Assembly: GCA_947301965.1 (NCBI GenBank)
Contig: CAMYUM010000001.1
Span: 190,731-254,730 of the forward strand
DNA length: 64,000 bases
Direction: 5' to 3'
Origin: an uncultured Azospirillum sp.
GTDB taxonomy: Bacteria > Pseudomonadota > Alphaproteobacteria > RF32 > CAG-239
Position 1 is the first letter of the stretch. Each line of letters starts with the position of its first letter. Shown here in pieces: positions 1 to 49,487 of this stretch. The translations under genes and the position numbers were made by a program. The notes below the pieces were generated by a model. That model was not told where the DNA came from and did not search any database. It worked only from the letters and a program-made list of their open reading frames with translations.

Positions 1-989
1 CCAACGAGATTATTTACGACGCCTCCGGATACAGGTGAACTTTCCGAACTGACGGTATTACCTATAAAGGTTCCACTTAACTCATTTATTTCACCAAAAT
101 TATATAACACGCCGCCGGATATATCTCCGCTTTGGGATTGGATTGTGTTGCCAATAAAATTTCCGGAAAGTGTGTTTATACTTCCACCGCCACCGACAAA
201 TATGGTTCCTTCTACTTCGCCACTTTCAGTGGTTGTCGAGTTTCCAAGAAAATCAGATAAGACATCTTGGATACTACCAACATTGTCAAGAGTTCCGCCG
301 CAAACTTGCGTATTAGCAGTTTCAGAGCTATTGTTTATAAAAACAGAATCTATATTTCCAATAGAAGCTCGCCAATTTGACAAAGCGCCACCATGAACTT
401 CAGCAACTGGTGATTTTGCACTATTATCAATAAACACGCCTGACACATTTCCTAATTTTGCGTCGTTGTAATTGGATAAAGCTCCGCCATATGCAGAAGA
501 AGTGCTGCTATCAATTGAATTGTTGATAAAGTCGGATTCAACATTTATGTCCGACTTATCTGAATGGTTATAGATTGCCCCGCCTTTGGCTGTTGTAGTT
601 AGATCTTGAAACACTTTGTTGTAAACATTTGTATCGGTTATTTCCGTAACACGAGCATCGGCCTGCTCATAGCCAGAAGAAGTATATTTATAGTATATGG
701 TTGCCGTTTCTTGGTTAGGTAAAACCATATTAAAACTGCCGGTCGCCCCATCAGCATTTGTTGAGTATGTTATGTGGTTATTATTTTTCAAGTTATTGGT
801 ATTAAGGTTGATTTTCCAATAACTGGTGTTTTTGCCATCAGTAGTGGTAAAATTATAATCAGAAGATGTTCCGGCAGTAATGTTATAGACACTGCCATCT
901 TTGTTCTCCGGTGTCCACTCTGCCCATGCCGGTGCACTTAAAAAAGTGGTGGTAAGTAAGACCGTTGCAACAAAGGAAAATTTGGTCAT
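1..989 (-). CDS. Pmp-like (polymorphic-membrane-protein-type repeat) secreted protein, N-terminal ~329 aa; gene continues past window start
   Basis: Minus-strand ATG at ~989 opens a frame with no stop down to position 1, so it is absent from the ORF track. My translation starts MTKFSFVATVLLTTTFLSAPAWA (a signal peptide). It then shows alternating GGA[ILV] motifs (GGAIYN, GGALSN x2, CGGTLDN, GGVLYN, GGVVNN) and FxxN motifs (FINNS, FIDNS, FINNS, FLGNS, FIGNT x2), typical of Chlam_PMP / autotransporter passenger repeats. Confidence 0.6.
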   Translation of the reverse strand, partial: MTKFSFVATVLLTTTFLSAPAWAEWTPENKDGSVYNITAGTSSDYNFTTTDGKNTSYWKINLNTNNLKNNNHITYSTNADGATGSFNMVLPNQETATIYYKYTSSGYEQADARVTEITDTNVYNKVFQDLTTTAKGGAIYNHSDKSDINVESDFINNSIDSSTSSAYGGALSNYNDAKLGNVSGVFIDNSAKSPVAEVHGGALSNWRASIGNIDSVFINNSSETANTQVCGGTLDNVGSIQDVLSDFLGNSTTTESGEVEGTIFVGGGGSINTLSGNFIGNTIQSQSGDISGGVLYNFGEINELSGTFIGNTVSSESSPVSGGVVNNLV

Positions 990-1076
990 GACAAAACTCC
1001 ATAAACAATGGTTTATAAACTATTGTTTATAATAGGATTTAATCGTTAAAAAGTGCTTAAAATCAATAGTTGAGGG

Positions 1077-1811
1077 TTATTTTTTGAATAAGCTGTATTG
1101 AGCATAAATGTTTTGCAAAGCCCCCATAAATTGTCTGTCCTCTAATATTTGAAAAGCCTTGTTGGAGTAGGGGTTGTCAAGCAATCGGAGAACAGACATG
1201 GTTGAAATTTTGTTCGGCAAAAAACGACGGCAAAAAGCGTAAGCTGCGGCTTCAAGATTGGCAACATCGTAACCGATAAATGATAACATTTTAGCAATAT
1301 CATTTTCTTCAGCAAAGCGGCTGCCGTACCATATACCGATATTGTTGGCCGCAAGTTCTTGCCACGGAAAAGCTTTGCCGGGGTCAGGTTTGCGGGTGGG
1401 GGCAATGTCGGAGTGTCCGACAATCATGTCAGGGGCAATATGCCAACGGTCAATAATTTCACGGCAGAGCAAAATGAGTGATTTAATCTGACGTTTGTTA
1501 AAAGCACTTTGTCCGAGTGAGCGGTGGCAAAGTTCAATGCCGATTGAACGTGAATTGATGTCATCAAGTCCGCGCCACGAACTTACACCGGCATGCCAGG
1601 CACGTTTGTCTTCAGAAACACATTGCCAAATGGTGCCGTCAAAATCAATTACATAATGAGAGCTCAGTTCTAGCTCATCAAGACGGGCTATGCCATCAAT
1701 TGCACCATGAGCCATGGAGTGAATGACAAGCATTTCTATCGGGTGAGCGCGTTCGTTAAAATGTTTTAGCGGGGCAGCATTACAGACAAATGGTAGATAG
1801 TTCAATTCCAA
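1077..1811 (-). CDS. ampD: N-acetylmuramoyl-L-alanine amidase AmpD (amidase_2/PGRP fold)
   Basis: 244 aa; LVIHSMA near the N-terminus and HSDIAPTRKPDPG resemble the AmpD family; overlaps the upstream pgeF by ~32 nt, same strand. Confidence 0.7.
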   Translation of the reverse strand: MELNYLPFVCNAAPLKHFNERAHPIEMLVIHSMAHGAIDGIARLDELELSSHYVIDFDGTIWQCVSEDKRAWHAGVSSWRGLDDINSRSIGIELCHRSLGQSAFNKRQIKSLILLCREIIDRWHIAPDMIVGHSDIAPTRKPDPGKAFPWQELAANNIGIWYGSRFAEENDIAKMLSFIGYDVANLEAAAYAFCRRFLPNKISTMSVLRLLDNPYSNKAFQILEDRQFMGALQNIYAQYSLFKK

Positions 1812-2544
1812 AATCTCCGGGTTGTTTAATCAGGTTTAAGTGGCAAAAACGACGATAACTGAAATAATGTTTGTCGTCGGAATAAGTATCTATTCCGGAC
1901 AGAGAAATGTCGCTTATACCAAGCAGTTCAATACGATGTTTGACATATTGTTCCAAGTTGCACAAATATTTTCCGTCGCCGATGGGCTCAAAAAATTGAG
2001 TGTTATCGGGAGATTGAGCAATGAATAAATCACGCATATCATCGCGGGTTTCAAAGTTTTGTTTTTGTAAACAGGGACCTGTAGCAACGGCAATGTCTTT
2101 GGGTTCTGCTCCGTGTTCAAGCATGAGTCTGACGGTGTTTTCAACTATTCCACCCAGAGCTCCGCGCCAACCGGCATGTGCGGCACCGATTATACCGTGT
2201 TTATAATCAGCTAAAAGAATCGGTATGCAGTCTGCAGTGGTTATACCTAAAACAATATTCGGTTTGTCGGTAACAACGCCATCGGCTTCAATTTGATATT
2301 GAGACGGTTGATCAAGATAAACAGCGGCTGATGTATGAGCCTGACACAGACGAACAACTCTTTGACCGGAAAGCCCATAATAAGCACCGACAACATCAAG
2401 GTTGCGTTTTAGGTTTTCAGGATTATCAGAACCGCGGTAGTTAAAATTGAGACTGTTGTAAATGCCTTTAGAAAAACCTCCGGTTCGCCCGAAAAAGGCG
2501 TGTTTGATTGCGGGGAGATTTGGGGCATTGTAAATGTGCGGCAT
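1780..2544 (-). CDS. pgeF: YfiH/PgeF family protein (LACC1/FAMIN-like purine nucleoside enzyme, peptidoglycan editing factor)
   Basis: 254 aa; DUF152-type sequence (HAGWRG, CIPILL, NLN.. motifs); start codon overlaps the deoA stop (TAATG). Confidence 0.7.
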   Translation of the reverse strand: MPHIYNAPNLPAIKHAFFGRTGGFSKGIYNSLNFNYRGSDNPENLKRNLDVVGAYYGLSGQRVVRLCQAHTSAAVYLDQPSQYQIEADGVVTDKPNIVLGITTADCIPILLADYKHGIIGAAHAGWRGALGGIVENTVRLMLEHGAEPKDIAVATGPCLQKQNFETRDDMRDLFIAQSPDNTQFFEPIGDGKYLCNLEQYVKHRIELLGISDISLSGIDTYSDDKHYFSYRRFCHLNLIKQPGDFGIELSTICL

Positions 2545-3854
2545 TATTCTATTACCTCAAAAACAGTTTTGGATTTGCGCGGTTTTTGTTCAGAAACGAC
2601 AATGTTGGAACGCAAAATGTCGGCGGCTTTTTGATATTCGACTTCAGTGTTGGCATGAATGTAGGCTAGCGGGGTTTGAGTGTCAACATAGTCACCGATT
2701 TGGCAAAAACCACTAAAACCGGTAGTGTGATCAATTTTTTGGTCAGGGCGAGTGCGTCCGCCTTTGAGTTCAATAATAGCAAGACCTATATTGCGGGTGT
2801 TCATGCCTGAGACATAACCGGAACATTCGGGAAATACCGGAAGTTTGAGACGGCTTTTGGGTAAATATTTTTCGGGCTTTTCAACAAAGTCTTTAGGCCC
2901 GCCGAGAGATGAAACCATGCGGGCAAAAGTTTCCAAAGCCAATCCGGAATCAATGTTTTTTTGCAGTTGTTTTTTGGCTGCAGAAACAGAAGGGAAAAGT
3001 TTTGACTGTACCAAAAGTTCAGCAGATAAAGTCATAGTAATTTCATGTAGGCGCGAATCGACATTGATATTTTTGAGATAATCAACTGATTCCTGAACCT
3101 CAACAGCATTGCCGACGGTGCTGCCCAAAACCTGATTCATGTCAGTCAAAATGGCTTTGGTGCCGGTGCCGGCGGCATTGGCAACATCAACAATGGAACG
3201 AGCCAAAGCGCGGGCATATTTAATGCTGCTCATAAAAGCACCATTACCGCATTTTAAGTCCATAATAAGATAGTCAAGTCCGGCGGCTAGTTTTTTGGAA
3301 AGAATGGAAGCGGTAATCAGAGGAATTGATTCTACCGTGGCGCAGACATCACGAATGGCATAAATTTTTTTGTCGGCAGGGGCAAGATGTCCGGTTTGAC
3401 CGATAATGGCACAACCGACTTTTTTGACGGTTTTTACAAACAGCTCATTGTCGGGGCAGGTTTTGTAGCCAAGTACAGAGTCAAGTTTATCAAGAGTGCC
3501 GCCGGTGTGTCCGAGACCGCGACCGGATATCATCGGAACAAATGCGCCGCAAGACGCAATCATTGGAGCCATTACCAAACTGATTTTGTCACCGACACCG
3601 CCGGTTGAGTGTTTGTCAACAACAGGTCCGTTAAGACCTTTCCATTTAAGAGTATCGCCGGAATCACGCATGTTGAGGGTTAAAGATGTAATTTCGTCTT
3701 TGCTCATGCCGTTAAGTAAAATTGCCATAGTCATGGCTCCGATCTGACTGTCGGCGATGGTGCCTTTGGTAATACCTTGAACAAAAAAACCGATTTCGTC
3801 CGAACTTAAAGGTTGACGGTCACGTTTTTTGCGAATGATTTCTTGTGGCAACAT
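2544..3854 (-). CDS. deoA: thymidine/pyrimidine-nucleoside phosphorylase
   Basis: 436 aa; HSTGGVGDK phosphate-binding motif and overall length typical of thymidine phosphorylase. Confidence 0.8.
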   Translation of the reverse strand: MLPQEIIRKKRDRQPLSSDEIGFFVQGITKGTIADSQIGAMTMAILLNGMSKDEITSLTLNMRDSGDTLKWKGLNGPVVDKHSTGGVGDKISLVMAPMIASCGAFVPMISGRGLGHTGGTLDKLDSVLGYKTCPDNELFVKTVKKVGCAIIGQTGHLAPADKKIYAIRDVCATVESIPLITASILSKKLAAGLDYLIMDLKCGNGAFMSSIKYARALARSIVDVANAAGTGTKAILTDMNQVLGSTVGNAVEVQESVDYLKNINVDSRLHEITMTLSAELLVQSKLFPSVSAAKKQLQKNIDSGLALETFARMVSSLGGPKDFVEKPEKYLPKSRLKLPVFPECSGYVSGMNTRNIGLAIIELKGGRTRPDQKIDHTTGFSGFCQIGDYVDTQTPLAYIHANTEVEYQKAADILRSNIVVSEQKPRKSKTVFEVIE

Positions 3855-3857
3855 AGG

Positions 3858-4595
3858 TTAATATCCTTTTTTGATGGTTTTGTTTATGTCGTCTAAAAGT
3901 GAGCTGGCACCAATGCGAAAATGTCTGGCATCAAGCGGCCATTTTGTACCCATTATGATTTGGGCCAAAGAAAAATATTGGCGAGCCTGTTCAAAGCTCT
4001 TTATGCCGCCGCTGGCCTTGAAGCCCACTTCGCGTTTGCTTGATTTGATGGTTTCCAAAATAACGTTGGCAGCTTCAGGAGTGGCAGAAACATCAGTTTT
4101 TCCGGTTGATGTTTTGAGAAAATCTATATCATATTCAAGACAAAGACGGCAGGCATCCTGGAGATGACGGATATGGGGAAAAGCTCCGCTTTCAAGAATG
4201 ATTTTGAGAGTAACTTTGTCGGTCAGACTGGTTATGGTATCGAGAAAAATGCGGCAGGCGTCAACATTGCCGTCCAAAAATGTTTTGTAAGGAAAAACGG
4301 CATCAATCTCATCTGCACCGGAAGAAACAGCTTTTTTAATTTCAGCGGCGACGGGGTCGGTTTTGATGTTTCCGTGCGGAAAGTTGACGACCGTAGCGAC
4401 TGAAACGTCGGTGTCCTTGAGGGCTTTGGCGGCAAGATGTACAAATTTCGGCCATACACAGACTGCGGCAACATGATAATCAGAGATTGCAGCTTTTTTG
4501 CAAAGATTGACCACGGTATCATCGCTATCGTTTTTGTTGAGAGAGGTTAAGTCAAGATTTGAAATGAGTTGTTTGGCCAGTTCAAAATCACGCAT
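3858..4595 (-). CDS. deoC: deoxyribose-phosphate aldolase
   Basis: 245 aa; DeoC-like TIM-barrel sequence; 3-nt gap to deoA. Confidence 0.8.
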   Translation of the reverse strand: MRDFELAKQLISNLDLTSLNKNDSDDTVVNLCKKAAISDYHVAAVCVWPKFVHLAAKALKDTDVSVATVVNFPHGNIKTDPVAAEIKKAVSSGADEIDAVFPYKTFLDGNVDACRIFLDTITSLTDKVTLKIILESGAFPHIRHLQDACRLCLEYDIDFLKTSTGKTDVSATPEAANVILETIKSSKREVGFKASGGIKSFEQARQYFSLAQIIMGTKWPLDARHFRIGASSLLDDINKTIKKGY

Positions 4596-4596
4596 G

Positions 4597-5397
4597 TTAT
4601 TTCTCCATAAAATAGGCTTTTATGAGTTTTGTGAGGTTTGTGGCTCCTTTGGAAGCACAGGCAAGAGTTTGTTCATGACTGAGTTTTTGTTTTTGCATGC
4701 CGGCTCCAAAATTGGTAATAACCGACATAGCCACGGTTTTTATACCGCAATATGATGCGGAAATAACCTCGGGAACCGTCGACATACCGACAGCGTCGGC
4801 GCCTAAAATGCGAAAAGCTTTGATTTCAGCGGGAGTTTCAAAGTTGGGGCCGGTAACAAAGATATATGTACCTTGATGGGTTTTTATTTTTAATTTGGTC
4901 GCAACCGATTTAAAACATTTGCGCATTTCGGTATCATAAGCAGAGGTCATATCAACAAAACGGGGACCAATCTTTTCATCATTTTCTCCAATGAGAGGAT
5001 TAAGTCCTGAAAAATTGATATGATCGGTAATAAACATAATTTCTCCGGGGAGAATTTTCGGGTTTAATGAACCGGCGGCATTGGTTATGATCAGCTGTTT
5101 TATGCCGACTTGTTTGAGCGAACTGATTACGTCTTTAATGATTGAGGGGTGATAACCTTCGTAAAGGTGAAAACGTCCCTGCATACACAAAACTTCGTGT
5201 TTGCCCAAGGTGCCGATAACCATCTGCCCTTTGTGCCCGGCTACGGTACTTGTTGGGAATCCTTGAATGTCGGAATATTTTATGACAAGAGGTTTTTTTA
5301 TGCTGTCGGCGACAGCTCCCAGGCCGGAGCCTAAAATGATGGCACAGTGAGGGTGGCGATTGAGCAAAAGTTTTTTGAATTGCCTGATATTAATCAT
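4597..5397 (-). CDS. punA: purine nucleoside phosphorylase (trimeric PunA type)
   Basis: 266 aa; AIILGSGLG and MSTVPEVI motifs of PNP family; 1-nt gap to deoC. Confidence 0.75.
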   Translation of the reverse strand: MINIRQFKKLLLNRHPHCAIILGSGLGAVADSIKKPLVIKYSDIQGFPTSTVAGHKGQMVIGTLGKHEVLCMQGRFHLYEGYHPSIIKDVISSLKQVGIKQLIITNAAGSLNPKILPGEIMFITDHINFSGLNPLIGENDEKIGPRFVDMTSAYDTEMRKCFKSVATKLKIKTHQGTYIFVTGPNFETPAEIKAFRILGADAVGMSTVPEVISASYCGIKTVAMSVITNFGAGMQKQKLSHEQTLACASKGATNLTKLIKAYFMEK

Positions 5398-5399
5398 GT

Positions 5400-5789
5400 T
5401 TAAAATTCCTCAAAAGCTTGCGGCAACAGTTCCGATATGCGGAAATGATGAAATTTTTTATCGGCATCGGTCAATATGATTTTGGTGTTTTTGTCGGAGA
5501 ATTCTTTTATCCTCTGAAGGCAGGCTCCGCAGGGCGTAATCATGCTTTTGCCGTCAGAAATTATGAGAATCTGCTTGATTTTGCGTCCGCCGTCCGCGAC
5601 CATGGTAGCAATGGCTCCGGCTTCGGCACAGGTGCCGCAGGGATAAGATATGTTTTCGACATTACATCCCCCATATATTTTTCCATTGTCAGCCAAAACG
5701 GCGGCGCCGACTCTAAATTTTGAATAAGGAGCATGAGCGTTCTGCATAGCGGTTTCGGCAATTTTGAAAAGTTGTTGAGTATTTTTCAT
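5400..5789 (-). CDS. cdd: cytidine deaminase
   Basis: 129 aa; CGTCAEAGAIA zinc-binding CDA motif; first gene of the minus-strand nucleoside operon. Confidence 0.8.
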   Translation of the reverse strand: MKNTQQLFKIAETAMQNAHAPYSKFRVGAAVLADNGKIYGGCNVENISYPCGTCAEAGAIATMVADGGRKIKQILIISDGKSMITPCGACLQRIKEFSDKNTKIILTDADKKFHHFRISELLPQAFEEF

Positions 5790-5909
5790 GTTATGACTTG
5801 ACCTTAAGCGTTTTATTAATCAATATGCTATTATAATATGCGGGTATTGTGAATATTTGGTAAATATATTTTTGTTTTTGTAATCCGATAACAGATAAAG
5901 AAGGTAAAC

Positions 5910-8900
5910 ATGTTGAAAAAAATAATTCTCGGACTGTTGATTTTGGTTGTGCTTGCGGTTGGTGGTGTGACCGTTTATCTTAATATGATAGATTGGAACC
6001 AACACAAAGCGGTTATTGCAAAGCAATTTTCAGAAGCAACCGGTAAAGAAGTGTCTTTTGACGGGGCGGTCAGTTTCAACCTGTTTCCTTCGCCGTATTT
6101 GGAAGCAACAGACATAAACATGTACAATGTTAACGCCGAAGGCCAAAGAATGGTGTTGGCAAAAATCAAAAAACTTGTTGCTCAGCTGTCATTGAATTCG
6201 CTGATAAGAGGTCGTTTTAATGTGGATAAGATGACAATTGTAAACCCGGAGATTTTTGTAGAACTGCTTGACGAAGGTGAACTGAATTGGGCATCAAACA
6301 AAGTTGAGAATCAGGATTTTGCGGTTAGTAATGTCGATGTTTCTTTCGGCAGTGTAATGCTGGAAGACGCAAAGGTTCATTTTGTGAGCAAAAAATATGA
6401 TTTTCATGTTGTTGCTGACGGGGTAAAAGCCGAAATAATCGCCGGCAGCATATTCGGGCCGTACCGTATTGAGGGAAGTTATGTAAAAGGCGACGTTCCC
6501 GGCGGTTTTGCATTAGACTTGGGCAAGTTCTCGGACAGTTTTGCAACGTCGATAAATGCCGTGTTGAGCCATCCGCAATCAGAGAGCTATGCACGTTTTG
6601 ACGGAACAGTTCTGTTGAAAAATGATGCAGTTAACGGCAATATTACGGTCGAATCAAAAAAGCCGGTTGATTTTCTGAATTCAACTTTTGAAAAAATTAA
6701 TTTGCCGGAAACCTATGAGCATCCTCTGGCTATGTCTTTGGCTCTCAAAAGTGATAAAAGCCAGATTACGCTGTCGAATGTGGTAATAAAATATGATAAG
6801 AGTGCCGGTGCCGGAAATATACTTATTCCGCGGTTGGAAGAAAAAATCGGTGATGAGGAGACAGAGCGGAGAAGGGTTGATGTTGCTTTTAATATGGCGG
6901 AATTTGATATTGTTCCGTTAATCAATGTGATGAAAGATTTTTGGAAGCAATTTGACGGAAAAGATTATATTCCCGAAACCGAATTTGACGTTATCGCCGA
7001 TTTGAAATCAGTAAAAACCTATTATAAAGACCAGGTTATTCGTGATTTGGATTTGAGTGTTGATTTTGTTGATAATGTTTTCACTTTGCGCAAATTTGCA
7101 GTCAGACTGCCGTTTGACGGTGTTGCAAAGGCAAAAGGAGAGTTATTCAGCGTTGAAAAAGTTTTGACCTATAATTTTGATGTTGAGGCCGAAACCACAG
7201 AGTTTGCAAAGACGGCGCAATGGCTGGGGTATGACGTTAAGCCTTTATCAAGTCAGCTGTATAAAAAAGCATCTACAAAATTTACGATTTCGGGAACACC
7301 GCAAACAGTAAAGATTTCTCCTTTTGTGTTTAATGTGGATAAGATCGGCATCAACGGAAAACTCGGTATTGTCAGAGGTGATGTCGATAAATACTTTGTT
7401 ATTGCTGAGGCTGACAATATTAATTTTGACAATTATGTTGAAAATATGCCGGAAGACGTTGCCGAAGGAAAGATTGATGAACAAATTCGTTATCGTTTCG
7501 GAAAACTTGCAGCGCTGAAAGATGTTGACGGACAGTTCAGACTGACACTTAATTCGGGAATTTGGGGGCAAATCCCGTTTGAGAAGCTGTATGCCGAAGG
7601 GGCGTTAAAGGAAGGAGTTCTTAAATTTAAGGAGCTGAGTGTCGGAGAGATGGCTTCGGCGCAGATGATGTTTAAGGGTGCTGTTTTGGGGTTCGGCGGT
7701 GAACCAGAGGTCAAAAATTTGTCGTATGATATTGATGTTAAGGATATGACAGCGTTTACCGAAAGAATGAAAATAAAGATGCCTTCGGTTGATTTGAAAA
7801 ATCTGTCAAAATTTAGCTCAGAAGGTGTGATTAGCGGTATGTTGTCAAGAGTGGCGCTGAAATCATCTTCAAAATTCGGCGACATTGATTTTTCATATGA
7901 CGGTGAAATTGCAAGAAATGAAGATAATTTTGAATTTGGCGGTAAGCTTGATTTACGCAGCAATGATTTTGTAAGGATGCTGAATAATTTTTCGGTCAAC
8001 TATCATCCCGAATATCCGCTCGGATTGTTTAAAATCACAACAGATGTGCGGGGCAATAAAAATACGGTGTTGCTGAAAAATGCTGATGCCAATATAGGAT
8101 CAAACAATTTTAAGGGCGAGTTGCTGTATTCCGTAAACGGAAGCAATAAGCAGCTGAAAACCAATTTGAATATAAACAATATAGAGTTGGAAAAATTCTT
8201 CTATAATACCGGAGCTAAAGCGGAAGTAAGTTCTTTTCGCTCAAAGGGTGAAAAGGTACCATTTTTGAGCAAGCCGGTTTTGAGCAAGGCAAATATAAAT
8301 TATGACTGGCTGAAAAATTGGGATGTTGAGGCGAAAGTTGTTGCCGGAAAATTGTCGTTGTACGGAGAAGCCTTATCAAACGCTTCGTGGGGTATGAAAC
8401 TTAATAAGCAAGTGCTAAAAATTATAGAATTTAAGGCCGATGACGGAGAGGGAGCGGTTAGCGGCGATATTGAATTGAACATTCCGAACAAAAATGCCTT
8501 GAGCGGAAAAATGGGGCTGTATAACATTGACCTTAATCAGGAAAAATGGAACGGGTTGAATTATGGTCTCAAAAAAGGCGTGCTTACGGCTGATTTCAGC
8601 TTTAATACCGGTGCGACATCAGTTGATGAACTGTTGACGCAGTTCAGCGGAAAAGGAACGTTTACGATAAACAAGCCGTTAGTAAAAGGTTGGGATCTCG
8701 AAACAATTGAAACTGATTTGGACAGTCGTGCGACCACCGACGGTCTGAAGATGATGTTGCAAGAAAATTTGAGCCGCGGAGAAACAGCGTTTGATATTTT
8801 TGAAGGAGCTTTTGAGGTCAATAATGGTAATTATAGGATTTATAATACCTCATTTGTATCAGATGTGTACAATGTTGGTGCGGTAGCTCAGGGGAATTTT

Positions 8901-9977
8901 GGTGATTGGACGCAAACGGCAAAATTCCAGGTTTCGTTTAAGGAAAATCAGTCTTTATCAGGTTTCGGATTTTCGCTGGACGGGGCAACAAATGCTCCTT
9001 CACTCGATGTTGATATAGAGGCTCTGTCGGATATGTATATATCCAGAGAAAAAGAAATGATAGCCGAAGCTAAAGCTGCGGAGAATGCAAAAGTTGAGAA
9101 GTACAGGGCTTTGATGGGACTGCAGCAGGAATATGTCGAGAAGTCACGGATAAAATTGGACGAGGCGATTGTTCCGGATTTTGAGGCTTGTAGCGCAAGA
9201 GCCGAAGACGAGAAAATGAAGGTGGCATATGCCCGGATAGGAGAAGAAATAAAATTAATAGAAACCGAAATCAAAGATATTAAAGCCCAGAAAAATATGG
9301 CGGTTGTTACCGATGATGTGATTGCCGATTTGCAAAAACGAAATGATATTTTAGTTGACAAGATTAAAAAGCTTGCGCTCGATTTGAAAGTTTTGCGGGC
9401 GCAAGATGTTCGCCTGCGGGTAAAAGATTATTATGCAAAAGTTTCGGAACGGGCAGGGCAGGTGCAAGAGGCCTATTCAAAATATGCGGATGCAAATGGA
9501 GACTTTGGAAATAGGCTGGCCGCTTTTAATGCACAATATTCTTTAGAGCAGGATCCGAAAGCTCGCGCTATTCGTCAAAAGTTGGACCGTTTGATGTCTG
9601 AAGTTGATACACTAAAACGCCAAGTCGAAAGAGATAATATCGCCGCCAAAAATGTTGATGATGTGGCTTTGTTGGAAGGTTATGCAACAAGCTTTGCCGA
9701 GGCGTATCATCATATTGATAAAAATATTGAGGAGATGAAAAGCTCAATTGATGAGTATGTCCAGTATGTTGAAGCAACAATATCGGCAGAAGAAAAAGCT
9801 TATTATAAAAAGATACATGATGAAAAAGCAAAGCAGAAAATTACCGAAAACGTGGGTACAATAGCAACATCTGACGGCAGAACAGTTACGATAAGACGAA
9901 ATCTTGAGGAAATTGAACGAACCGAAGAACTGATTAAGCAAGAGGGGCGCAGAGTGCTTGATTTCAGCAATGACTGA
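5910..9977 (+). CDS. AsmA-family outer-membrane biogenesis protein with ~350-aa C-terminal coiled-coil extension
   Basis: 1355 aa; N-terminal TM anchor then AsmA-like N-domain (…ATGKEVSFDGAVSFNLFPSPYLEATDINMYNV); AsmA-like C-region around aa 700-1000; last ~350 aa (nt ~8940-9977) are E/K/A-rich heptad-like sequence. Confidence 0.6.
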   Translation: MLKKIILGLLILVVLAVGGVTVYLNMIDWNQHKAVIAKQFSEATGKEVSFDGAVSFNLFPSPYLEATDINMYNVNAEGQRMVLAKIKKLVAQLSLNSLIRGRFNVDKMTIVNPEIFVELLDEGELNWASNKVENQDFAVSNVDVSFGSVMLEDAKVHFVSKKYDFHVVADGVKAEIIAGSIFGPYRIEGSYVKGDVPGGFALDLGKFSDSFATSINAVLSHPQSESYARFDGTVLLKNDAVNGNITVESKKPVDFLNSTFEKINLPETYEHPLAMSLALKSDKSQITLSNVVIKYDKSAGAGNILIPRLEEKIGDEETERRRVDVAFNMAEFDIVPLINVMKDFWKQFDGKDYIPETEFDVIADLKSVKTYYKDQVIRDLDLSVDFVDNVFTLRKFAVRLPFDGVAKAKGELFSVEKVLTYNFDVEAETTEFAKTAQWLGYDVKPLSSQLYKKASTKFTISGTPQTVKISPFVFNVDKIGINGKLGIVRGDVDKYFVIAEADNINFDNYVENMPEDVAEGKIDEQIRYRFGKLAALKDVDGQFRLTLNSGIWGQIPFEKLYAEGALKEGVLKFKELSVGEMASAQMMFKGAVLGFGGEPEVKNLSYDIDVKDMTAFTERMKIKMPSVDLKNLSKFSSEGVISGMLSRVALKSSSKFGDIDFSYDGEIARNEDNFEFGGKLDLRSNDFVRMLNNFSVNYHPEYPLGLFKITTDVRGNKNTVLLKNADANIGSNNFKGELLYSVNGSNKQLKTNLNINNIELEKFFYNTGAKAEVSSFRSKGEKVPFLSKPVLSKANINYDWLKNWDVEAKVVAGKLSLYGEALSNASWGMKLNKQVLKIIEFKADDGEGAVSGDIELNIPNKNALSGKMGLYNIDLNQEKWNGLNYGLKKGVLTADFSFNTGATSVDELLTQFSGKGTFTINKPLVKGWDLETIETDLDSRATTDGLKMMLQENLSRGETAFDIFEGAFEVNNGNYRIYNTSFVSDVYNVGAVAQGNFGDWTQTAKFQVSFKENQSLSGFGFSLDGATNAPSLDVDIEALSDMYISREKEMIAEAKAAENAKVEKYRALMGLQQEYVEKSRIKLDEAIVPDFEACSARAEDEKMKVAYARIGEEIKLIETEIKDIKAQKNMAVVTDDVIADLQKRNDILVDKIKKLALDLKVLRAQDVRLRVKDYYAKVSERAGQVQEAYSKYADANGDFGNRLAAFNAQYSLEQDPKARAIRQKLDRLMSEVDTLKRQVERDNIAAKNVDDVALLEGYATSFAEAYHHIDKNIEEMKSSIDEYVQYVEATISAEEKAYYKKIHDEKAKQKITENVGTIATSDGRTVTIRRNLEEIERTEELIKQEGRRVLDFSND

Positions 9978-10078
9978 TAATTTATTGGGATAATGAATAA
10001 ATAATATGTTGTTTAATTAGTTTTTTAGGTGTTATACTATCCCTTATATAAATTAATTATGAATTTAGGAGAGTTTTA

Positions 10079-10972
10079 ATGTATAGAAAACCAGAAGTTT
10101 GTATTCTTCCGGTAGCGGGTTTGTCAACTCGTAATTTGCCTGCAACAAAAGTTTTACATAAAGGATTTTTGACATTGAACAGCCTACCGATTATTCAGTA
10201 TGCGGTGGATGCCTGTGCGGAAATCGGAATAAAGGAAATTGTTTTTATATATAGTGATCAGTCATGCAAGCATTTGTTTGAGGCATATTATAAACCTTAT
10301 CCTTGGCTTGAAAATCATTTGCGCGAAAAAGGAAAACTGGATTTGCTGAAAGTAATTGAAAGCATTATTCCGGAGGGAATGAAGTTTAGTTTTGCCGAAC
10401 AAAAAGAACCTAAAGGCAATGGACACGCCGTTCTGATGGCAAAGGATATTGTCGGAAGCCGCGATTTTGTTGTGATGTGGCCGGATGATGTTTATATTAA
10501 TACTCACGACGGAGCCGGGGTTTTGCGCCAACTGCTTGATGTGTATGAGCAAGAAGGCGGAATGGTGGAAAATATTATGGAGTTTCCGCGCGAACAGATG
10601 GTTCGTTACGGAGCATTGATTGGTGCGGTCAGAGAAGGGCGTATTGTCAGAGCCAAGGGAAAAATTGAAAAACCGGCTTTGGAAGATGTGCCTTCAAATT
10701 ATGCAAGTATGGGACCGTATATTTTGCCAAATGAAATTATGGATATTTTGCCGGAAGTTAAAAAGGGTACAAACGGCGAAATTAATCTGGCAGATGCCAT
10801 GGGTTTGGCGGCACAAAGAGGCATGAAATTGACCGGAGTTTTATGTGACGTTATGCGTTTGGACTGTGGTACCAATGCAGAATTGGCAAAAGCAAATTTG
10901 AAGCTGACATTAATGCAAAATCCTGATTTAAGGGCGTATTGCAAAGAATTGCTGGAAACAATGTTTGTATAA
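10079..10972 (+). CDS. galU: UTP--glucose-1-phosphate uridylyltransferase
   Basis: 297 aa; ILPVAGLSTRNLPATK and KGNGHAV motifs of GalU. Confidence 0.75.
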   Translation: MYRKPEVCILPVAGLSTRNLPATKVLHKGFLTLNSLPIIQYAVDACAEIGIKEIVFIYSDQSCKHLFEAYYKPYPWLENHLREKGKLDLLKVIESIIPEGMKFSFAEQKEPKGNGHAVLMAKDIVGSRDFVVMWPDDVYINTHDGAGVLRQLLDVYEQEGGMVENIMEFPREQMVRYGALIGAVREGRIVRAKGKIEKPALEDVPSNYASMGPYILPNEIMDILPEVKKGTNGEINLADAMGLAAQRGMKLTGVLCDVMRLDCGTNAELAKANLKLTLMQNPDLRAYCKELLETMFV

Positions 10973-10974
10973 AA

Positions 10975-10997
10975 GATGCCGCTTTGCGGCATTTTTT
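10975..10997 (+). terminator. rho-independent terminator after galU
   Basis: gatgccgctttgcggcatc-like hairpin followed by tttttt. Confidence 0.5.
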
Positions 10998-11088
10998 ATA
11001 CAGCAAATATCAGATAATTGACAAATTAAAATAAAAGTAATAGCATCCTGCCATTACTTTTATTATTCAGGATTTAAATAATTATTGT

Positions 11089-11496
11089 ATGGATTTTAAA
11101 ACTTTATTCAGGAAAATCCGTAGACGTGTATGCGGATGTAAGTTGGTTGTTATTGATGCCCAGGGTAGCCAAGTGTTGGTTCTGGACAGAAATAAAAACG
11201 TCGGATGCTTGGAAGGAGAAGCCTTTGACGTAGTCATGAAACCCGGTGTAATGATTTGGGCTTTTTCGGGAGGGGATATGTCACTATTCAAAGTGTCTCC
11301 CGGGTCATACAAGAACAAGGATCAAAGTGCCAGACTGCTGTATTATGATGAGAAGCGGCACATGTGGATTGCTCGTTTGAAAAATGATACGAGTTTGGTG
11401 TTTTTTGATGCCGATTATCATCGTTATCAGCTAGGGGATACCGTGGTGGTGGATTTCTTCGGGCAGAAGGCCCTGATATCGCGTTTTGTGATGTAA
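11089..11496 (+). CDS. hypothetical protein (135 aa)
   Basis: Clean ORF between galU and rplY; no family recognised. Confidence 0.4.
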   Translation: MDFKTLFRKIRRRVCGCKLVVIDAQGSQVLVLDRNKNVGCLEGEAFDVVMKPGVMIWAFSGGDMSLFKVSPGSYKNKDQSARLLYYDEKRHMWIARLKNDTSLVFFDADYHRYQLGDTVVVDFFGQKALISRFVM

Positions 11497-11661
11497 ACTT
11501 AACAAACTTAGGTAAAAAGGGGGTGGCTGAAAAGCTTATCCCCTTTTTGTTAACTAAAAAGTGCTTGAAAAAAAATAAATATGGGTATAGAAGGGTTTTG
11601 TTCGGTGAGCACCCCTGGAGGCTTGCCGAAGATTTTAAGTTAATTTTTTAAGGAAAAACAA

Positions 11662-11952
11662 ATGGTAGATATTACATTTAATGCTGAAAAGCGCGAAAAA
11701 GCAGGTAAGGGGGCAGCTAGAGCATGTCGTCGTGAGGGACGTGTTCCTGCCGTTATTTATGGTAACAAGCAGGAACCGGTTATGATCAGCCTGCACCCGG
11801 TTGAGCTTGAAAAAGCTTTGGATATGGTTGGTTTTTATGATGCCGATATTGAAATTGTTGTCGACGGTAAGAAAATTAAAGTTACTTGCCAAGATGTACA
11901 ATTCCATCCGGTTTCTGACATGCCAATTCACGTTGACTTTCTTAGAAAATAA
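11662..11952 (+). CDS. rplY: 50S ribosomal protein L25, short form without the C-terminal CTC domain
   Basis: 96 aa; MVDITFNAEKREKAGKGAARACRREGRVPAVIYG matches the L25 N-domain; stops after HVDFLRK; rplY-pth-ychF order conserved. Confidence 0.75.
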   Translation: MVDITFNAEKREKAGKGAARACRREGRVPAVIYGNKQEPVMISLHPVELEKALDMVGFYDADIEIVVDGKKIKVTCQDVQFHPVSDMPIHVDFLRK

Positions 11953-11964
11953 TCTGTAGAAATG

Positions 11965-12030
11965 TTTCGGAGCGTCGAAATCCGGGCGATGATTGTAGTT
12001 GTCTCGGTGTCGCGCTCCGAAAAATTTTTA
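11965..12030 (+). other. perfect 10-bp inverted repeat (TTTCGGAGCG … CGCTCCGAAA) with ~38-nt loop and trailing T-run between rplY and pth
   Basis: Seen directly in sequence at ~11965-11974 and ~12013-12022, followed by aaattttta. Confidence 0.5.
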
Positions 12031-12044
12031 AACGGTGTGATAAA

Positions 12045-12614
12045 ATGTTTTTGATTGTCGGTTTAGGTAATCCCGGGGCTGAATATGTTGCTACCCGTCA
12101 TAATGTCGGTTTTATGACAGTTGATGCTATTGCCGAAAAATATGGGTTTAGTCCGTGGCGTGATAAATTTGATGGATTGATTGCTGAGGGGTGTATCGGC
12201 GATGAAAAAGTCTATTTGTTAAAACCTCAGACTTTCATGAATTTGTCCGGAAACTCGGTAGTGAAGGCGGCAATGTTTTATAAAATATTACCTGATCATA
12301 TTGTAGTCATACATGATGATATGGATTTGGGGATTGATAAGATAAAAGCCAAAACCGGTGGTGGATCAGGCGGACATAACGGAATTAAGAGTATAGATTC
12401 ACACATAACAAACGCCTATCATCGTGTGCGAATCGGTGTCGGACATCCGAGTGGCAATGATGGCGATGTAGTGAATCATGTGTTGTCACGATTTTCAAAA
12501 ATTGAAGCGGAGAGTCTCGGCAAAAATATAAAAATTGTTGCAGATAATATTGAAATTTTATTGAAAGACGGAGTGCCGGCATTCAGCAATAAAATCGGAA
12601 TGTTAAAGGCATAG
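12045..12614 (+). CDS. pth: peptidyl-tRNA hydrolase
   Basis: 189 aa; MFLIVGLGNPGAEYVATRHNVGF canonical Pth N-terminus. Confidence 0.85.
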   Translation: MFLIVGLGNPGAEYVATRHNVGFMTVDAIAEKYGFSPWRDKFDGLIAEGCIGDEKVYLLKPQTFMNLSGNSVVKAAMFYKILPDHIVVIHDDMDLGIDKIKAKTGGGSGGHNGIKSIDSHITNAYHRVRIGVGHPSGNDGDVVNHVLSRFSKIEAESLGKNIKIVADNIEILLKDGVPAFSNKIGMLKA

Positions 12615-12626
12615 AAGGAGAGTATT

Positions 12627-13736
12627 ATGGGGTTTAATTGCGGTATTGTGGGATTGCCTAATGTCGGAAAGTCTACGTTGTTTAATGCGCTGACACAAAC
12701 GATAGCAGCACAGGCGGCAAATTTTCCTTTTTGTACAATAGAACCCAATACCGGTCGGGTGGCTGTTCCTGATGAGCGTTTGGATAAACTGGTTGAGTTG
12801 GTAAAACCTAAAAATGTTGTACCGACACAATTGGAATTTGTTGATATTGCCGGCTTGGTAAAAGGAGCATCAAAAGGTGAAGGACTGGGAAACCAGTTTT
12901 TGGCCAACATTCGCGAAGTTGATGCCATAATACATGTTTTGCGTTGTTTTGAAGACGACAATATTACCCATGTTGAAGGCAGTGTTGATCCGATACGTGA
13001 TGCTGAAATTGTAGAAACCGAACTGATGATTGCCGATTTGGAATCTTTGGAAAAACGCTATGAGCAAACAGTCAAGAAGGCGCGCGGCGGAGACAAAGAA
13101 TCAATTGTTCGTCAGGCAGTTATGGAGCCGATTATTGAAGCCCTGAAGTCAGGCAAACCGGCGAGAGCGGCAGCGCCCGACGCAAGCAATAAAGATGCGG
13201 TCAAAGAGTATAAAATGTTGCAACTGTTGACTTCAAAGCCGGTTTTGTATGTTTGTAATGTTGATGAAAATTCTGCCGCTACGGGGAACAAGTTTTCGGA
13301 GCAGGTTGAAAAGAAAGCAGCTGCAGAAGGTGCAAAAGCGGTTATTATTTCGGCGGCGATTGAGTCTGAAGTTGCGCAATTGGATAATAAAGAAGAGCAA
13401 AAAGAATTTTTGGAAACCTTAGGACTGAAAGAGACCGGTTTGGCCAGAATTATCCGCGCCGGATATGATTTACTCGGTTTGCAAACTTATTTTACCGCCG
13501 GTCCGAAAGAAGTAAGAGCGTGGACTTTTGTTAAAGGTTCAAAGGCTCCGCAATGCGCCGGAATTATTCACTCCGATTTTGAAAGAGGGTTTATTCGGGC
13601 AGAAACAATTTCGTACAACGACTATGTAAGTCTGGGCGGAGAACAGGCTTGCAAAGAGGCGGGAAAAATGCGTTCCGAAGGTAAGGATTATGTGGTGCAA
13701 GACGGTGATTTGATGAACTTCTTGTTTAATGTATAA
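12627..13736 (+). CDS. ychF: ribosome-binding ATPase YchF
   Basis: 369 aa; [19 protein letters not shown]-loop and C-terminal TGS-like domain. Confidence 0.9.
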
Positions 13737-13772
13737 AAAAGGCGGAGACTTAAAAAGGTCTCCGTTTTTTTA
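13737..13772 (+). terminator. rho-independent terminator after ychF
   Basis: ggcggagac ttaaaaag gtctccg followed by ttttttt. Confidence 0.6.
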
Positions 13773-13811: not shown

Positions 13812-13832
13812 AATTGATAGGAGATGAGAGCC

Positions 13833-16391
13833 ATGAATTTAGAAAAATTTACTACACGTTCGCAAGAAATTATAAAGTCAGCTTATGATACGGCAGTTGC
13901 CGGAAAGCGGCAATATGTTACGGCATTGGAAATTTTGCAGGCAATTTTGACTGCGAGAGATGCGGTTATTGATAAATTGATAGTCGATGCCGGCGGCAAT
14001 ATTGATGCTTTGAGAAAAGACACAGAAAATGAAGTTAATAAGGTTGCGCAAGTGTCGGGCAATGTGCAAACAGTCGTTTCACAAGATTTTAATGAAGTTA
14101 CCTTGGCGGCGGAAAATATCGCGACAAAAGCAAATGATAAGTTTGTTACGGTTGAAAGGTTGTTGCAGGCATTGGCAATGACCGCCGGGAACAAAGCTTA
14201 TGATTTGTTAAAGTCAAACGGAGTAAATGCTCAAAAGTTAAATTTGGCAATTTCTAATTATCGTCAGGGAAGATTGGCTGATAGTGAAAGCGCGGAAGAT
14301 AATTTTGAAGCATTGAAAAAATATGCAATTGATATTACCGCCAAAGCTAAAGAAGGAAAACTTGATCCGGTTATCGGGCGTGATGCAGAAATCAGAAGAA
14401 CAATTCAAGTGCTTTCCCGCCGTACCAAGAACAATCCGGTATTGATTGGTGAGCCGGGGGTAGGCAAAACCGCAATTGTCGAAGGTTTGGCAATGCGTAT
14501 TGTTAATAACGATGTGCCGGAAAGTTTGAAAGGAAAACGCTTGTTGGCTTTGGATATGGGAGCATTGATTGCAGGTGCAAAGTTCAGAGGTGAATTTGAA
14601 GAGCGCTTGAAAGCAGTGCTGAAAGATGTTGAGGCGGCTAACGGTGGTATAATTCTGTTTATTGATGAAATGCACACCATTGTCGGGGCCGGAGCAAACG
14701 AGGGTTCAATGGACGCTTCAAACCTCTTGAAACCAGCATTAGCGCGGGGCGAGTTGCATTGTTTGGGAGCGACGACATTATCGGAATATAAAAAGTATGT
14801 AGAAAAAGATGCAGCTTTGGCAAGGCGTTTTCAGCCGGTATTTGTAGCCGAACCGGGAATTGAGGAAAGTATTTCAATTTTACGCGGAATTAAAGAAAAA
14901 TTTGAACTGCACCACGGAGTCAGAATATCCGATAGTGCATTGATTGCGGCAGTTACACTTTCCAACAGATATATAAGTGACAGATTTTTGCCGGATAAGG
15001 CGATTGACTTAATGGACGAGGCGGCAAGTTCACTGCGTATGGCGATTGATTCAAAGCCGGAGGAATTAGATGGTTTGGATCGTAAAATCTTGCAGCTTAA
15101 AATTGAGAGAGAGGCTTTGAAGAAGGAAAAAGATGATAATTCTAAAAAGCGTTTGGTCGAAATTGAAAAAGAAATTGCCGATGAGGAAGAAAAGGCAAAT
15201 GCTTTGTCCGCAAAATGGAAAGCCGGGAAAAAGGCTTTGGCTGATTTGACTGAAGTGAAAGATAAGTTGGATAAGGCTAGAAATGAAGCAATTATTGCCC
15301 AGCGTAACGGACAGTTTGAAAAGGCTGGTCAGTTACAATACGGGGAAATTCCTCAACTGGAAAAACAACTGCATGAGTTGGAGGATTTGGCAAAACAACA
15401 AAAGGGTGATGCCGAGCATGTTGTTACCGATACCGCTATTGCCGAAGTGGTTTCAAAGTGGACAGGAATTCCGGTTGATAAAATGCTGGAAGGCGAAAAA
15501 GACAAGCTGTTGAAAATGGAAGAGTTTTTGGCACAACGCGTAGTCGGTCAAAAGGAAGCTATTAGTGCGGTAGCTAATGCGGTACGTCGTTCACGTGCAG
15601 GAATCAGCGACCACAAGCAACCTATTGGTTCATTTTTGTTTTTGGGTCCGACCGGTGTCGGCAAGACAGAGTTAAGCAAAGCTTTGGCAGAGTTTTTGTT
15701 TAATGATGAAAATGCAATGTTTCGTGTCGATATGTCGGAGTACATGGAAAAGCATGCGGTGGCTCGTCTTATCGGTTCTCCTCCGGGATATGTCGGATAT
15801 GAAGAAGGTGGCGCATTGACGGAATCTGTTCGACGCAGACCATATCAGGTAATTTTGTTTGATGAGGTTGAAAAGGCTCATCCCGATGTGTTTAATATTT
15901 TGTTGCAGGTGCTTGATGACGGGCGTCTGACTGATAGCAAAGGTCGTACCGTTGATTTTAAGAACACGATTATTATCATGACTTCTAACTTGGGTTCGGA
16001 TATCTTAATGCGCGGAGGCTCCAAAGAAGAGGTTATGAATGTGGTTAAAGGTGCTTTCAGACCGGAGTTTATTAACCGTATTGATGAGATAAGCGTATTT
16101 GATAAGCTGAGTAAAGATGATATTAAACAAATTGCTAAAATTCAGCTGCGTAATATTGAAAAGCGGTTGGAAGAAAAAAATATTAAGTTGCATTTTAGTG
16201 ATGAGGCAATTAGTTGGATCAGCAAAAACGGATATGATGAAAATTTCGGTGCACGTCCGCTAAAACGTTTGCTTAAAACACAGGTTGAAAATCAATTGGC
16301 GCTTAAAATATTGAATAATGAAATCGCAGACAATGATACAGCAGAAATTGTTGTTAAAGATAATGCTCTGGAGATAGAAAAAGTTGATTGA
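13833..16391 (+). CDS. clpB: ATP-dependent chaperone ClpB
   Basis: Two AAA+ modules with a coiled-coil middle domain. The ORF track starts at 13824 (MRAM…), but the ATG at 13833 (MNLEKFT…) has a better-spaced RBS (aggaga) and matches the usual ClpB N-terminus. Confidence 0.9.
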
Positions 16392-46961: not shown

Positions 46962-49487
46962 TTATTCACAAGTCATAAGCTGAACAGTAGAACGGTTGTC
47001 ATGGTTACAACTTTGATAAGTCATCTCGCAGAGATTGTTTACATATGTTTGTCGATCTCCGCAATTAGTTCCGCTGGTGCAGACCTGTTTTTTGGAGGTA
47101 TAATCAACAGATCTCAAGTAACCTTTATTTCCGGAAACAGTATATGTGCATGCCATGTAGGCTTGCGAATCGTATATATGAGCATCTCTGTTACCATTGC
47201 ATCCACATCTGAGCAATCTGACGTGGTTATGACGCTGGTAGTCAACTTTGTCTACCATTGAACATTTTTTGAGAATTTTGTTACGACCTTCCAAAATGCG
47301 GGCACTATTGTCGGTAACCTGTATTTTACTACCGGTAGTTAAACCAATTGTGTATTGGGCCGAATTGTTGGGGTTGTAAAGATACCAGTCAAGAGCGTTA
47401 GACAAGTTTAAGGTTAAACCTCTTGCACGGTAAGCGCCTTGAGCCCAACCAACCTGAAGATTGGTGTAAACACTGGCCGGAGAAGAGCTCGAAGGTCCGT
47501 AAAATCTGAAGGTTTTGTTGACAAGAGATGCTGATGGTAAGTGATCTTTATCAGAACAACTTTTTCCGGTCTCAGCATCTTTTATTGTCCAATTGTAGCG
47601 GTTTTGATAGGTATCACGCTCGTTACCGATCTGGAATTTGTTAACCGCAAAGACCTGACCCTCACCAAGAGTGATTGAGTTGGTAACATCTTTCGAGCTA
47701 ATATCGGTCAAAGTTCCTCGACCAAAGTACGAAGATTCGCTGTTGAACGAGTATCCGGAGGATAGAAATCGGTTTCTGTTAACTAGTTCTCCTGAAATGT
47801 TAACTTCACCGGTTCCTGTTAACGTGAGGGTTCCATAATTCCAAAGTGTTCCGCTGACAGTCAAGATTCCGTTATCAACAGTTAAAGCACGGTAGGAAGA
47901 AGTTGATTGAGGGAATCTGAGTTCGATTCCCTTGAAATTAAGGGGATCGGTATTTGCTTGCGAATCATTGCTCGGAAATGTCGATGCCGTGTATGTAATC
48001 ACCGGGGTGCCACTGCAGTTATTTTTGGCGTTGTCGGCAATAGGATCATCGCCGAAAGTTTCAAGATACTGGGCGGCTGAAATATAGGTTTTAGCCTTAG
48101 AGCCTACGAGCCCGGCGTAACCAGTGGTAGTATTCGTCGTAGTTATATCTCTGGTGTGAGTGCATACGGCTAGCATTTCTCTGCCGCCACCGCCGTTGCC
48201 TCGAGCACAACCATATCGTGTGAGGTTACTGTACGGTTGATCAAGATATTGACATGGAATAGGCCCTATGTGTGAGAACGTCCATTCGCTGCCAAGATCA
48301 TGATGTTGCCATACGCCACAGTTTGTGCAAACACAACTGTCATCATCCTGGTAGAATGGATTTTCGCGAGGAGTAACGTTATCCTTGCACTCACGCCTTA
48401 TGCAAACGGTTGTTGTGTGAGAGCTGCTTGAAGAGCTATTACTACCAGCTGTACTTATGGTTACACTGTCAGCTACAATTGCTTTGGTTGCAGTACTGGT
48501 ATTACCATTACCATCTACAACTGTGGTAGCGGTCAATACACCATACTGGGTATCATTAGTGGCTTTTAATAACTCTTTGATTGCACCGGAACATGTGTCT
48601 TTGGTGCACTTGCCGTTAACAACGGTGTATCCCGATTTGCAAGAAGTGGCTCTGTAGCGTTCACTATTGCCACCGGTACATCCCTTTTCAGTACGGCATT
48701 TGACGTAATTTACCACTTCACTGGGGAGCTCTGTATAAGGGTAAGTTGTGGCATCGCACTGACAGCAGTCGGAAACGTATTGCAGTCCATCTTCGTCAGT
48801 ACAAGTTGTGGCACTTCCGGGAACACCATAACTACAGGTTGTTTTAAGGATAGTTTCGTTACATTCACATTTTGTAAAGTGTTCATCGCCATCAGGAGCG
48901 TCCTGGCATCTGATACCACCAGCTTTCATACCTTTGGCCTGGCAGATCTCTACAGTACGGGGATAGGTGACAGGATTACACAAACAACCTTTGTAAAGCG
49001 AGGTTGTAACTAAGGCATCGTTTTTGTATTGTCTAAAATAGCAGATGCCGTTTGCGTAATCACCACGAGCGTTTTCATACGAAGTACCGTTGCTGAGGCG
49101 AGTACAGTTGTCCCCACTTTCATAATAATCAAACTCATCGGGGCATCCACATTTTAGCAAATTACCGCATCGATCAAGTATGATGTTGGTGCTGTCGCAT
49201 TGGGAGGTATATTCAGCGTCGCAACATAATACCCAGTTGTTGTCATAAGGACAGTAGTCACCGATATGTTTTGGGGTGACACATTCAGTTCTTTTGACGG
49301 TATAGCCCGCTTCTTTGCATTTTTGTTCAAGTTCGTTAGCATCAGGGATAATATCATCAGGATTAACGCTTCCATCTCCACACTCGCCGGAGGGGAGAAA
49401 ACAAACGCTGGCGTTGGTACTTAAAGACCAAAAACAGCAACAGCCGACAAGCAATGCGGCCATTAGATATTTATACGATTTTTTCAT
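46962..49487 (-). CDS. large cysteine-rich secreted protein, paralog B (841 aa)
   Basis: Signal peptide MKKSYKYLMAALLVGCCCFWSLSTNA. About 34 Cys lie in the first ~330 aa with conserved spacing (CPYDNNWVLCC, CGNLLKCGC, YPRTVEIC, TKCEC, CSYGVP, TYPYTELPSEV, NGKC). An S/T/N linker follows, then a second Cys cluster. A ~400-aa Cys-free region carries NISGEL/VSGTL repeats. A small C-terminal Cys cluster ends in MTCE. It is about 50% identical to the product of 49655..52183. Confidence 0.7.
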   Translation of the reverse strand: MKKSYKYLMAALLVGCCCFWSLSTNASVCFLPSGECGDGSVNPDDIIPDANELEQKCKEAGYTVKRTECVTPKHIGDYCPYDNNWVLCCDAEYTSQCDSTNIILDRCGNLLKCGCPDEFDYYESGDNCTRLSNGTSYENARGDYANGICYFRQYKNDALVTTSLYKGCLCNPVTYPRTVEICQAKGMKAGGIRCQDAPDGDEHFTKCECNETILKTTCSYGVPGSATTCTDEDGLQYVSDCCQCDATTYPYTELPSEVVNYVKCRTEKGCTGGNSERYRATSCKSGYTVVNGKCTKDTCSGAIKELLKATNDTQYGVLTATTVVDGNGNTSTATKAIVADSVTISTAGSNSSSSSSHTTTVCIRRECKDNVTPRENPFYQDDDSCVCTNCGVWQHHDLGSEWTFSHIGPIPCQYLDQPYSNLTRYGCARGNGGGGREMLAVCTHTRDITTTNTTTGYAGLVGSKAKTYISAAQYLETFGDDPIADNAKNNCSGTPVITYTASTFPSNDSQANTDPLNFKGIELRFPQSTSSYRALTVDNGILTVSGTLWNYGTLTLTGTGEVNISGELVNRNRFLSSGYSFNSESSYFGRGTLTDISSKDVTNSITLGEGQVFAVNKFQIGNERDTYQNRYNWTIKDAETGKSCSDKDHLPSASLVNKTFRFYGPSSSSPASVYTNLQVGWAQGAYRARGLTLNLSNALDWYLYNPNNSAQYTIGLTTGSKIQVTDNSARILEGRNKILKKCSMVDKVDYQRHNHVRLLRCGCNGNRDAHIYDSQAYMACTYTVSGNKGYLRSVDYTSKKQVCTSGTNCGDRQTYVNNLCEMTYQSCNHDNRSTVQLMTCE

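Follow-up and report, generated by a model that had tools for sequence, protein, structure and literature searches.

The stretch of DNA analysed here, 64,000 nucleotides of a contig assigned to an uncultured Azospirillum sp. (referred to below as the window), begins within a gene that is read on the minus strand from position 989. The portion of it that lies in the window very probably specifies the N-terminal third of an autotransporter of the classical (type Va) kind. The β-helical passenger of this protein resembles those of the chlamydial polymorphic membrane proteins (Pmps), and it is most likely an adhesin or aggregation factor. The product is a member of a paralogous, partly mosaic protein family that occurs in uncultured Rhodospirillales of the gut and rumen. 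Computation gave the domain order and the predicted folds, from residue 330 on by way of a full-length protein named P0068. The gene segments that lie in the window are as follows.

1..989, minus strand: 5' part of the autotransporter gene (329 codons and 2 bases), defined by the open frame and by identity to P0068.
921..989, minus strand: residues 1-23, a Sec signal peptide for which cleavage is predicted between AWA and EW, from sequence features and conservation in homologues.
615..920, minus strand: family-specific N-terminal β domain, residues 24-125, predicted with six strands and a predicted local distance difference test score (pLDDT) >90.
3..614, minus strand: predicted first six to seven rungs of a Pmp-like right-handed β-helix, residues 126-329; each rung spans about 30 amino acids (aa) and combines a single GG(A/x)(I/L/V) turn with a single FxxN turn.
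997..1000, minus strand: GGAG, a Shine-Dalgarno-like element 7 nt before the ATG, read from the sequence.

Translation of positions 989 to 3 yields 329 sense codons and zero stops, and the ATG at 989 is the sole start codon downstream of an in-frame TAG located 12 codons before it. The open reading frame (ORF) list prepared for the window excludes frames that run past its edge, hence the gene is absent from it. A first-pass annotation of this DNA had described a minus-strand frame with a signal peptide running from 989 to the window start and had attributed its omission from the ORF track to a stop lying beyond the window; the translation agrees with both statements. The signal peptide, MTKFSFVATVLLTTTFLSAPAWA followed by EW, was judged from the sequence to have a basic n-region, a hydrophobic core and an A-x-A cleavage site. 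It is kept in homologues as TFLSAPAxA and appears as a low-confidence helix in the structural model described below.

After the signal peptide about 100 residues are free of repeats, and then a series of FxxN motifs begins at residues 154, 186, 217, 247, 278 and 308, with a spacing of 30-32 aa and a GG turn 12-14 residues ahead of each. Only three of these turns have the canonical GGA[ILV] form (GGAI 136, GGAL 168 and GGAL 200); the other four are non-canonical (GGTL 231, GGGS/GGSI 267, GGVL 292 and GGVV 322). The earlier count of at least six alternating GGA(I/L/V) and FxxN motifs is therefore correct for FxxN; to hold for the GG turns as well, it has to include the non-canonical variants. 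The regularity is well beyond chance, as judged from 20,000 composition-preserving shuffles of the window product: GGA[ILV] was observed 3 times against a shuffle mean of 0.04, with no shuffle reaching 3, FxxN 6 times against a mean of 1.6 (P = 0.003), and FxxN followed by GG within 8-16 aa 6 times against a mean of 0.14. The core pattern described for chlamydial proteins, GGA[ILV]-x(14,18)-FxxN (PMC11166332), is fitted strictly by two pairs in the window part and by three in the whole protein, and a relaxed version of it by seven.

The rest of the protein was reached through P0068, a sequence of 1107 aa retrieved by a protein search with the 849-aa orthologue from the rumen metagenome-assembled genome (MAG) RUG10691. 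Its residues 1-329 are identical to the window product (329/329) and, since no other genome comes nearer than 92% identity, P0068 and the window gene are almost certainly the same gene on sequence grounds. Beyond residue 329, P0068 continues with another seven repeats, which are followed by a spacer rich in Pro, a linker helix and a predicted barrel of 12 strands. Its C-terminus matches the autotransporter β-barrel models PF03797 (95 bits; cut-off 26) and TIGR01414 (101.1 bits; cut-off 16), which answers the check suggested in the first-pass annotation, namely to recover the C-terminus and search it for such a barrel. Instead of closing with a stop just past the window and no barrel, the frame is uninterrupted to 1107 aa in P0068. 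Together, the repeats and the barrel bear out the earlier proposal of a Pmp-type repeat passenger belonging to an autotransporter.

A model of P0068 was built with AlphaFold2 (AF2) and a 44-sequence alignment (mean pLDDT 87.2; predicted template modelling score 0.69). It divides the protein into the following parts.

Residues 1-23: signal peptide.
Residues 35-102: small β domain.
Residues about 122-660: continuous β-helix.
Residues 675-775: further β segment.
Residues 782-793: Pro-rich spacer PEPEPEPQPKP, of low confidence.
Residues 798-814 and 817-824: linker helices.
Residues 849-1106: barrel of twelve long strands.

The modelled β-helix consists of approximately 13 rungs of about 30 aa, in each of which a single GG(A)(I/L/V) turn is paired with a single FxxN turn. 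Its window part is regular, with pLDDT >90, and the sole low-confidence loop of the passenger comprises residues 665-670. When the full model was compared with the PDB using Foldseek, the top matches were the translocators of NalP, AaaA, EstA, AIDA-I, EspP, BrkA and Hbp (E = 1e-10 to 1e-8), with target template modelling (TM) scores of 0.63-0.82 (NalP, E = 1.3e-10 and TM 0.74-0.80; BrkA, TM 0.82) at a sequence identity of only 12-18%. A search of PDB sequences with the family profile gave no match at E ≤ 0.01.

At least 90% of 44 family members share a CxxC pair, C832 and C835 in P0068. The model places it after the linker helix and ahead of the first barrel strand, in a loop of low confidence, and it is unusual for autotransporter translocators. 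A disulfide or a metal site is possible at this position.

Several observations weigh against the autotransporter assignment or against its Pmp-like part. The C-terminal two thirds lie outside the window and the extension rests on protein identity to P0068; exact DNA scans of genome and metagenome collections with the first 55 and the first 40 bases of the window gave no match, and look-ups of the exact products of the window gene at 1780-2544, of P0068 and of P0071 did not lead to the source contig either. The Pfam model of the chlamydial repeats (Chlam_PMP, PF02415) reaches 14.7 bits on the fragment (E = 0.038), where the gathering score would require 20.6, and is not among the Pfam matches at E ≤ 1 on full-length P0068, while the NCBIfam repeat models match neither the fragment nor P0068. 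Between positions 850 and 1900, which include the DNA upstream of the gene, neither a sigma-70-like promoter nor an intrinsic terminator was found. In addition, AF2 can over-predict β-solenoids for repeat sequences, and do so over-confidently (bioRxiv 10.1101/2024.10.30.621056). In the present case the β-helix fold is also expected from homology. Among 44 aligned full-length homologues, PF03797 is present in all 44 and Chlam_PMP in 12 at E ≤ 0.01, with a best value of 4.4e-13. The Chlam_PMP part of the hidden Markov model check that had been suggested thus fails for the window protein itself and succeeds for part of its homologues; in sequence terms, PF02415 connects to the family via relatives and the window protein alone does not qualify.

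A protein search with the window fragment returned 67 relatives, mostly truncated by contig ends. Those with names include gut and rumen MAGs labelled Rhodospirillales or Alphaproteobacteria, and a protein from an Akkermansia MAG (P0036) is among the matches. Relatives are already labelled by NCBI as [quoted passage not shown]. A locus search with a six-sequence alignment located an orthologue (L001), 92% identical, at a contig end in RUG10691, deposited as "uncultured Rhodospirillales bacterium", and a paralogue (L002) in the same MAG. The barrel was not detected by Pfam in the contig-truncated translations of these two loci because only about 0-90 aa of it are present. An intact orthologue of 1108 aa, P0186, occurs in a 96.8-kb scaffold (L007) that is 99.8% identical to the RUG10691 contig.

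P0068 and a paralogue, P0071, are encoded on one contig of 266,773 nt. Identity between paralogues is 30-50% over residues 50-600 and 70-98% over residues 600-1107; between P0068 and its orthologue L001 it amounts to 86-100% over the passenger. Over residues 801-850, in the region of the linker helix and the CxxC pair, P0068 shares 98% identity with the paralogue L002 and 74% with the orthologue L001; this mosaic patch suggests that gene conversion has taken place between paralogues. In nucleotides, the gene body has 92.6% identity to L001 from position 43 of the coding sequence onward. An alignment of window positions 947-989 with L001 10001-10042 showed the first 42 nt, which are signal-peptide codons, and all upstream DNA to be unrelated; in RUG10691 it is the two paralogues that have their 5' ends in common. 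These few sequences suggest exchange between paralogues and relocation of the genes. Both events are common in autotransporter families.

Comparison with well-characterized autotransporters helps to place the protein. The rungs of chlamydial Pmps have a length of 27 residues or more. FxxN and GGA(I/V/L) occupy two turns of the rung, where they are buried and packed against one another, a ladder of Asn residues is seeded by a conserved Asp at "Rung 0", the loops lie on one face, and sequences such as GGGI and GGVI can fill the canonical GGA role (PMC10715098). PmpA-I of C. trachomatis and Pmp1-21 of C. pneumoniae have in common with the window protein the type Va architecture, β-helix rungs (predicted ones in the window protein) with one GGA(I/L/V)-type and one FxxN turn, and membership of a multi-paralogue family; PmpB also carries non-canonical GGV(I/L) and GGG(I/S) in some rungs. 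The gap from GG to F is 14-18 aa in 75% of chlamydial pairs and 12-14 aa in the window protein. One difference is the distance between FxxN and the GG that follows, typically 4-5 aa in Chlamydia and 10 aa in the window protein. The window protein further differs in having its own N-terminal β domain and a Pro-rich spacer, and its host belongs to free-living gut and rumen Rhodospirillales, unlike the obligate intracellular chlamydiae. The Pmp family has a further hallmark in the middle domain PMP_M (PF07548) (PMC11166332), for which there was no match at E ≤ 1 on P0068 or P0071, nor was it among the families of the 44 homologues. The window protein falls outside the chlamydial Pmp family in the strict sense and is no orthologue of it; via its relatives it probably belongs with the broad Pmp-like repeat group. 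By analogy, it may work like a Pmp passenger.

Such repeats are widespread outside Chlamydiae. [quoted passage not shown] Proteins of this kind, e.g., A0A1C7PBX1 of Akkermansia glycaniphila (PMC11166332), are likewise long Pmp-like β-helix autotransporters of gut bacteria. Compared with them, the window protein has more degenerate repeats (3 strict patterns versus up to 10 in relatives) and an N-terminal domain that is limited to a small group. With classical autotransporters (pertactin, Vag8, BrkA, NalP, EspP, Hbp and AIDA-I) it shares the predicted 12-strand barrel and the internal linker helix. Pertactin has Pro-rich repeat regions, and P0068 is likewise Pro-rich near the C-terminus of the passenger. 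The differences from this group are the lack of a protease or esterase head domain, the Pmp-type rung motif and the CxxC pair of the family.

Type Va autotransporters are exported through Sec and the β-barrel assembly machinery (BAM), with exit of the passenger C-terminus first and vectorial folding. Following this established pathway, the precursor would cross the inner membrane via Sec and BAM would insert the barrel. The passenger would then be threaded out C-terminus first, its folding being seeded by the conserved C-terminal segment and proceeding towards the N-terminus. The outcome would be a rigid stalk of about 13 rungs displaying the N-terminal domain and variable rung loops at the cell surface. 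Residues 24-125 would lie at the distal tip of the passenger and show the sequence pattern DYNFT...SYWKINLN...LPN...YYxYT. They have no match in Pfam or NCBIfam. A search across 1.84 billion proteins matched them, at E ≤ 0.001, to no more than 23 cluster representatives; the match lay in every case close to an N-terminus, in proteins up to 3428 aa long or in fragments.

No catalytic Pfam or NCBIfam domain was found on full-length P0068 at E ≤ 1, the predicted stalk is rigid with a family-specific tip, and adhesion by Pmps has been shown for C. pneumoniae (PMC2997323). For these reasons, and by analogy with the chlamydial proteins, the protein most likely serves uncultured Rhodospirillales of the gut and rumen as an adhesin on the surface or as an aggregation factor, which makes the candidate adhesin of the first-pass annotation a reasonable proposal. 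It would be one of several paralogues with a common export module and different exposed parts. A more specific version of this idea is offered tentatively, as possible although on the doubtful side: the N-terminal domain would be an undescribed ligand-binding tip, by which gut and rumen Rhodospirillales bind a host, plant-fibre or microbial partner, and the paralogues would swap segments by gene conversion and so vary what is exposed.

The alternative that survives best, still an unlikely one, is that the family serves mainly for surface variation, as variable antigens or phage-receptor decoys, with adhesion being secondary. At least two paralogues occur per genome (P0068 and P0071 on one contig, L001 and L002 in RUG10691), and the divergence of their exposed parts over a conserved C-terminal part, the patch at 801-850, the signal-peptide segment that differs between orthologues of otherwise similar body and the non-syntenic locations of orthologues all speak for it. 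Nevertheless, the mosaicism is known from a handful of sequences, the window showed no silent cassettes, and inspection by eye of the 5' end of the gene revealed no homopolymer or short tandem repeat that could act as a phase-variation signal, no dedicated scan having been run. Surface variation is, moreover, compatible with the adhesin role rather than exclusive of it.

Clearly less probable is a passenger with enzymatic activity, that is, a displayed or released glycan-degrading or proteolytic β-helix similar to pectate-lyase-fold depolymerases or to IgA1 proteases. The absence of a catalytic domain mentioned above argues against it, as do the regular Pmp-type rungs, which carry no large insertion for an active-site cleft, the only low-confidence loop being that at 665-670. 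It is highly improbable that the gene is truncated or decaying, or that the β-helix is exported by another route (two-partner secretion, the type IX secretion system or a phage tailspike), as the end of the window within the ORF, an in-frame stop at codon 186 of L002 and a homologue called as two genes in the metagenomic contig L004 might suggest, since P0068 runs without interruption and agrees with the window part at every residue, the orthologue P0186 is unbroken in L007, the barrel is found in every aligned homologue, many genes look split in the L004 assembly (e.g., the AsmA homologue), and no phage genes adjoin the gene in the window.

With the type Va adhesin reading, uncultured gut and rumen Rhodospirillales are seen to carry a small paralogous family of Pmp-like autotransporters, which provides a candidate surface protein for a group without cultured representatives or known colonisation factors. 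It adds one further lineage to the many non-chlamydial Pmp-like β-helices already present in the literature. The value of this observation is modest: the gene is an ordinary one of a well-known type, which needs no new mechanism and opens no new question.

Upstream of the gene, the Shine-Dalgarno-like element is directly adjoined by one additional feature.

1001..1030, no strand assigned: AT-rich near-perfect palindrome of 30 nt (ATAAACAATGGTTTA/TAAACTATTGTTTAT), 93% complementary, detected by a repeat search.

This palindrome is not present upstream of the RUG10691 orthologue. Its candidacy as an RNA hairpin was rejected (z = -0.63), and it may be a putative operator or have arisen by chance in AT-rich DNA.

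With regard to the rest of the window, a second copy of the family was sought by tblastn with P0068 and P0071, which matched positions 1-989 only, and an 855-aa ORF at 13824-16391 considered as an autotransporter was rejected, as it corresponds to ClpB. The first-pass annotation had also supposed a functional tie to certain Cys-rich proteins, for which nothing supporting was found. These are probably two tandem paralogous ORFs on the minus strand, at 46962-49487 (841 aa) and 49655-52225 (856 aa), located 46 kb away with housekeeping genes in between; they show signal-like N-termini, very many Cys in the first ~450 aa and Ser/Thr-rich tracts, and have no Pfam match at E ≤ 0.001.

The autotransporter gene adjoins an amidase_2 gene and a YfiH-like gene. 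Upstream of these three, and also on the minus strand, lies a cluster that includes genes for thymidine phosphorylase (2544-3854) and a member of the purine-nucleoside-phosphorylase family (4597-5397). It is faced by a plus-strand ORF of 1355 aa (5910-9977), the L004 homologue of which has AsmA/DUF748 matches; the functions named for these window ORFs rest on Pfam matches of their L004 homologues. L004 is a related metagenomic contig of 1.78 Mb, collinear with window positions 3600-13750. At 7672-12300 it carries a family member, with a Pmp-like passenger and a PF03797 barrel, inserted at the point that matches window positions ~10980-11690, and a second PF03797 gene is found downstream of ychF, where the window carries clpB.

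In L007, the orthologue sits between a DUF748 gene and the rnf operon, an arrangement that is not syntenic with the window. Upstream of it, the region 1576-7900 includes a stretch 71% identical to the tRNA-Asp region of the window. Past this stretch there are internal repeats, in copies about 91% identical, and genes with Tlde1 and phage-tail Collar domains, so that the region looks like an island beside a tRNA gene.
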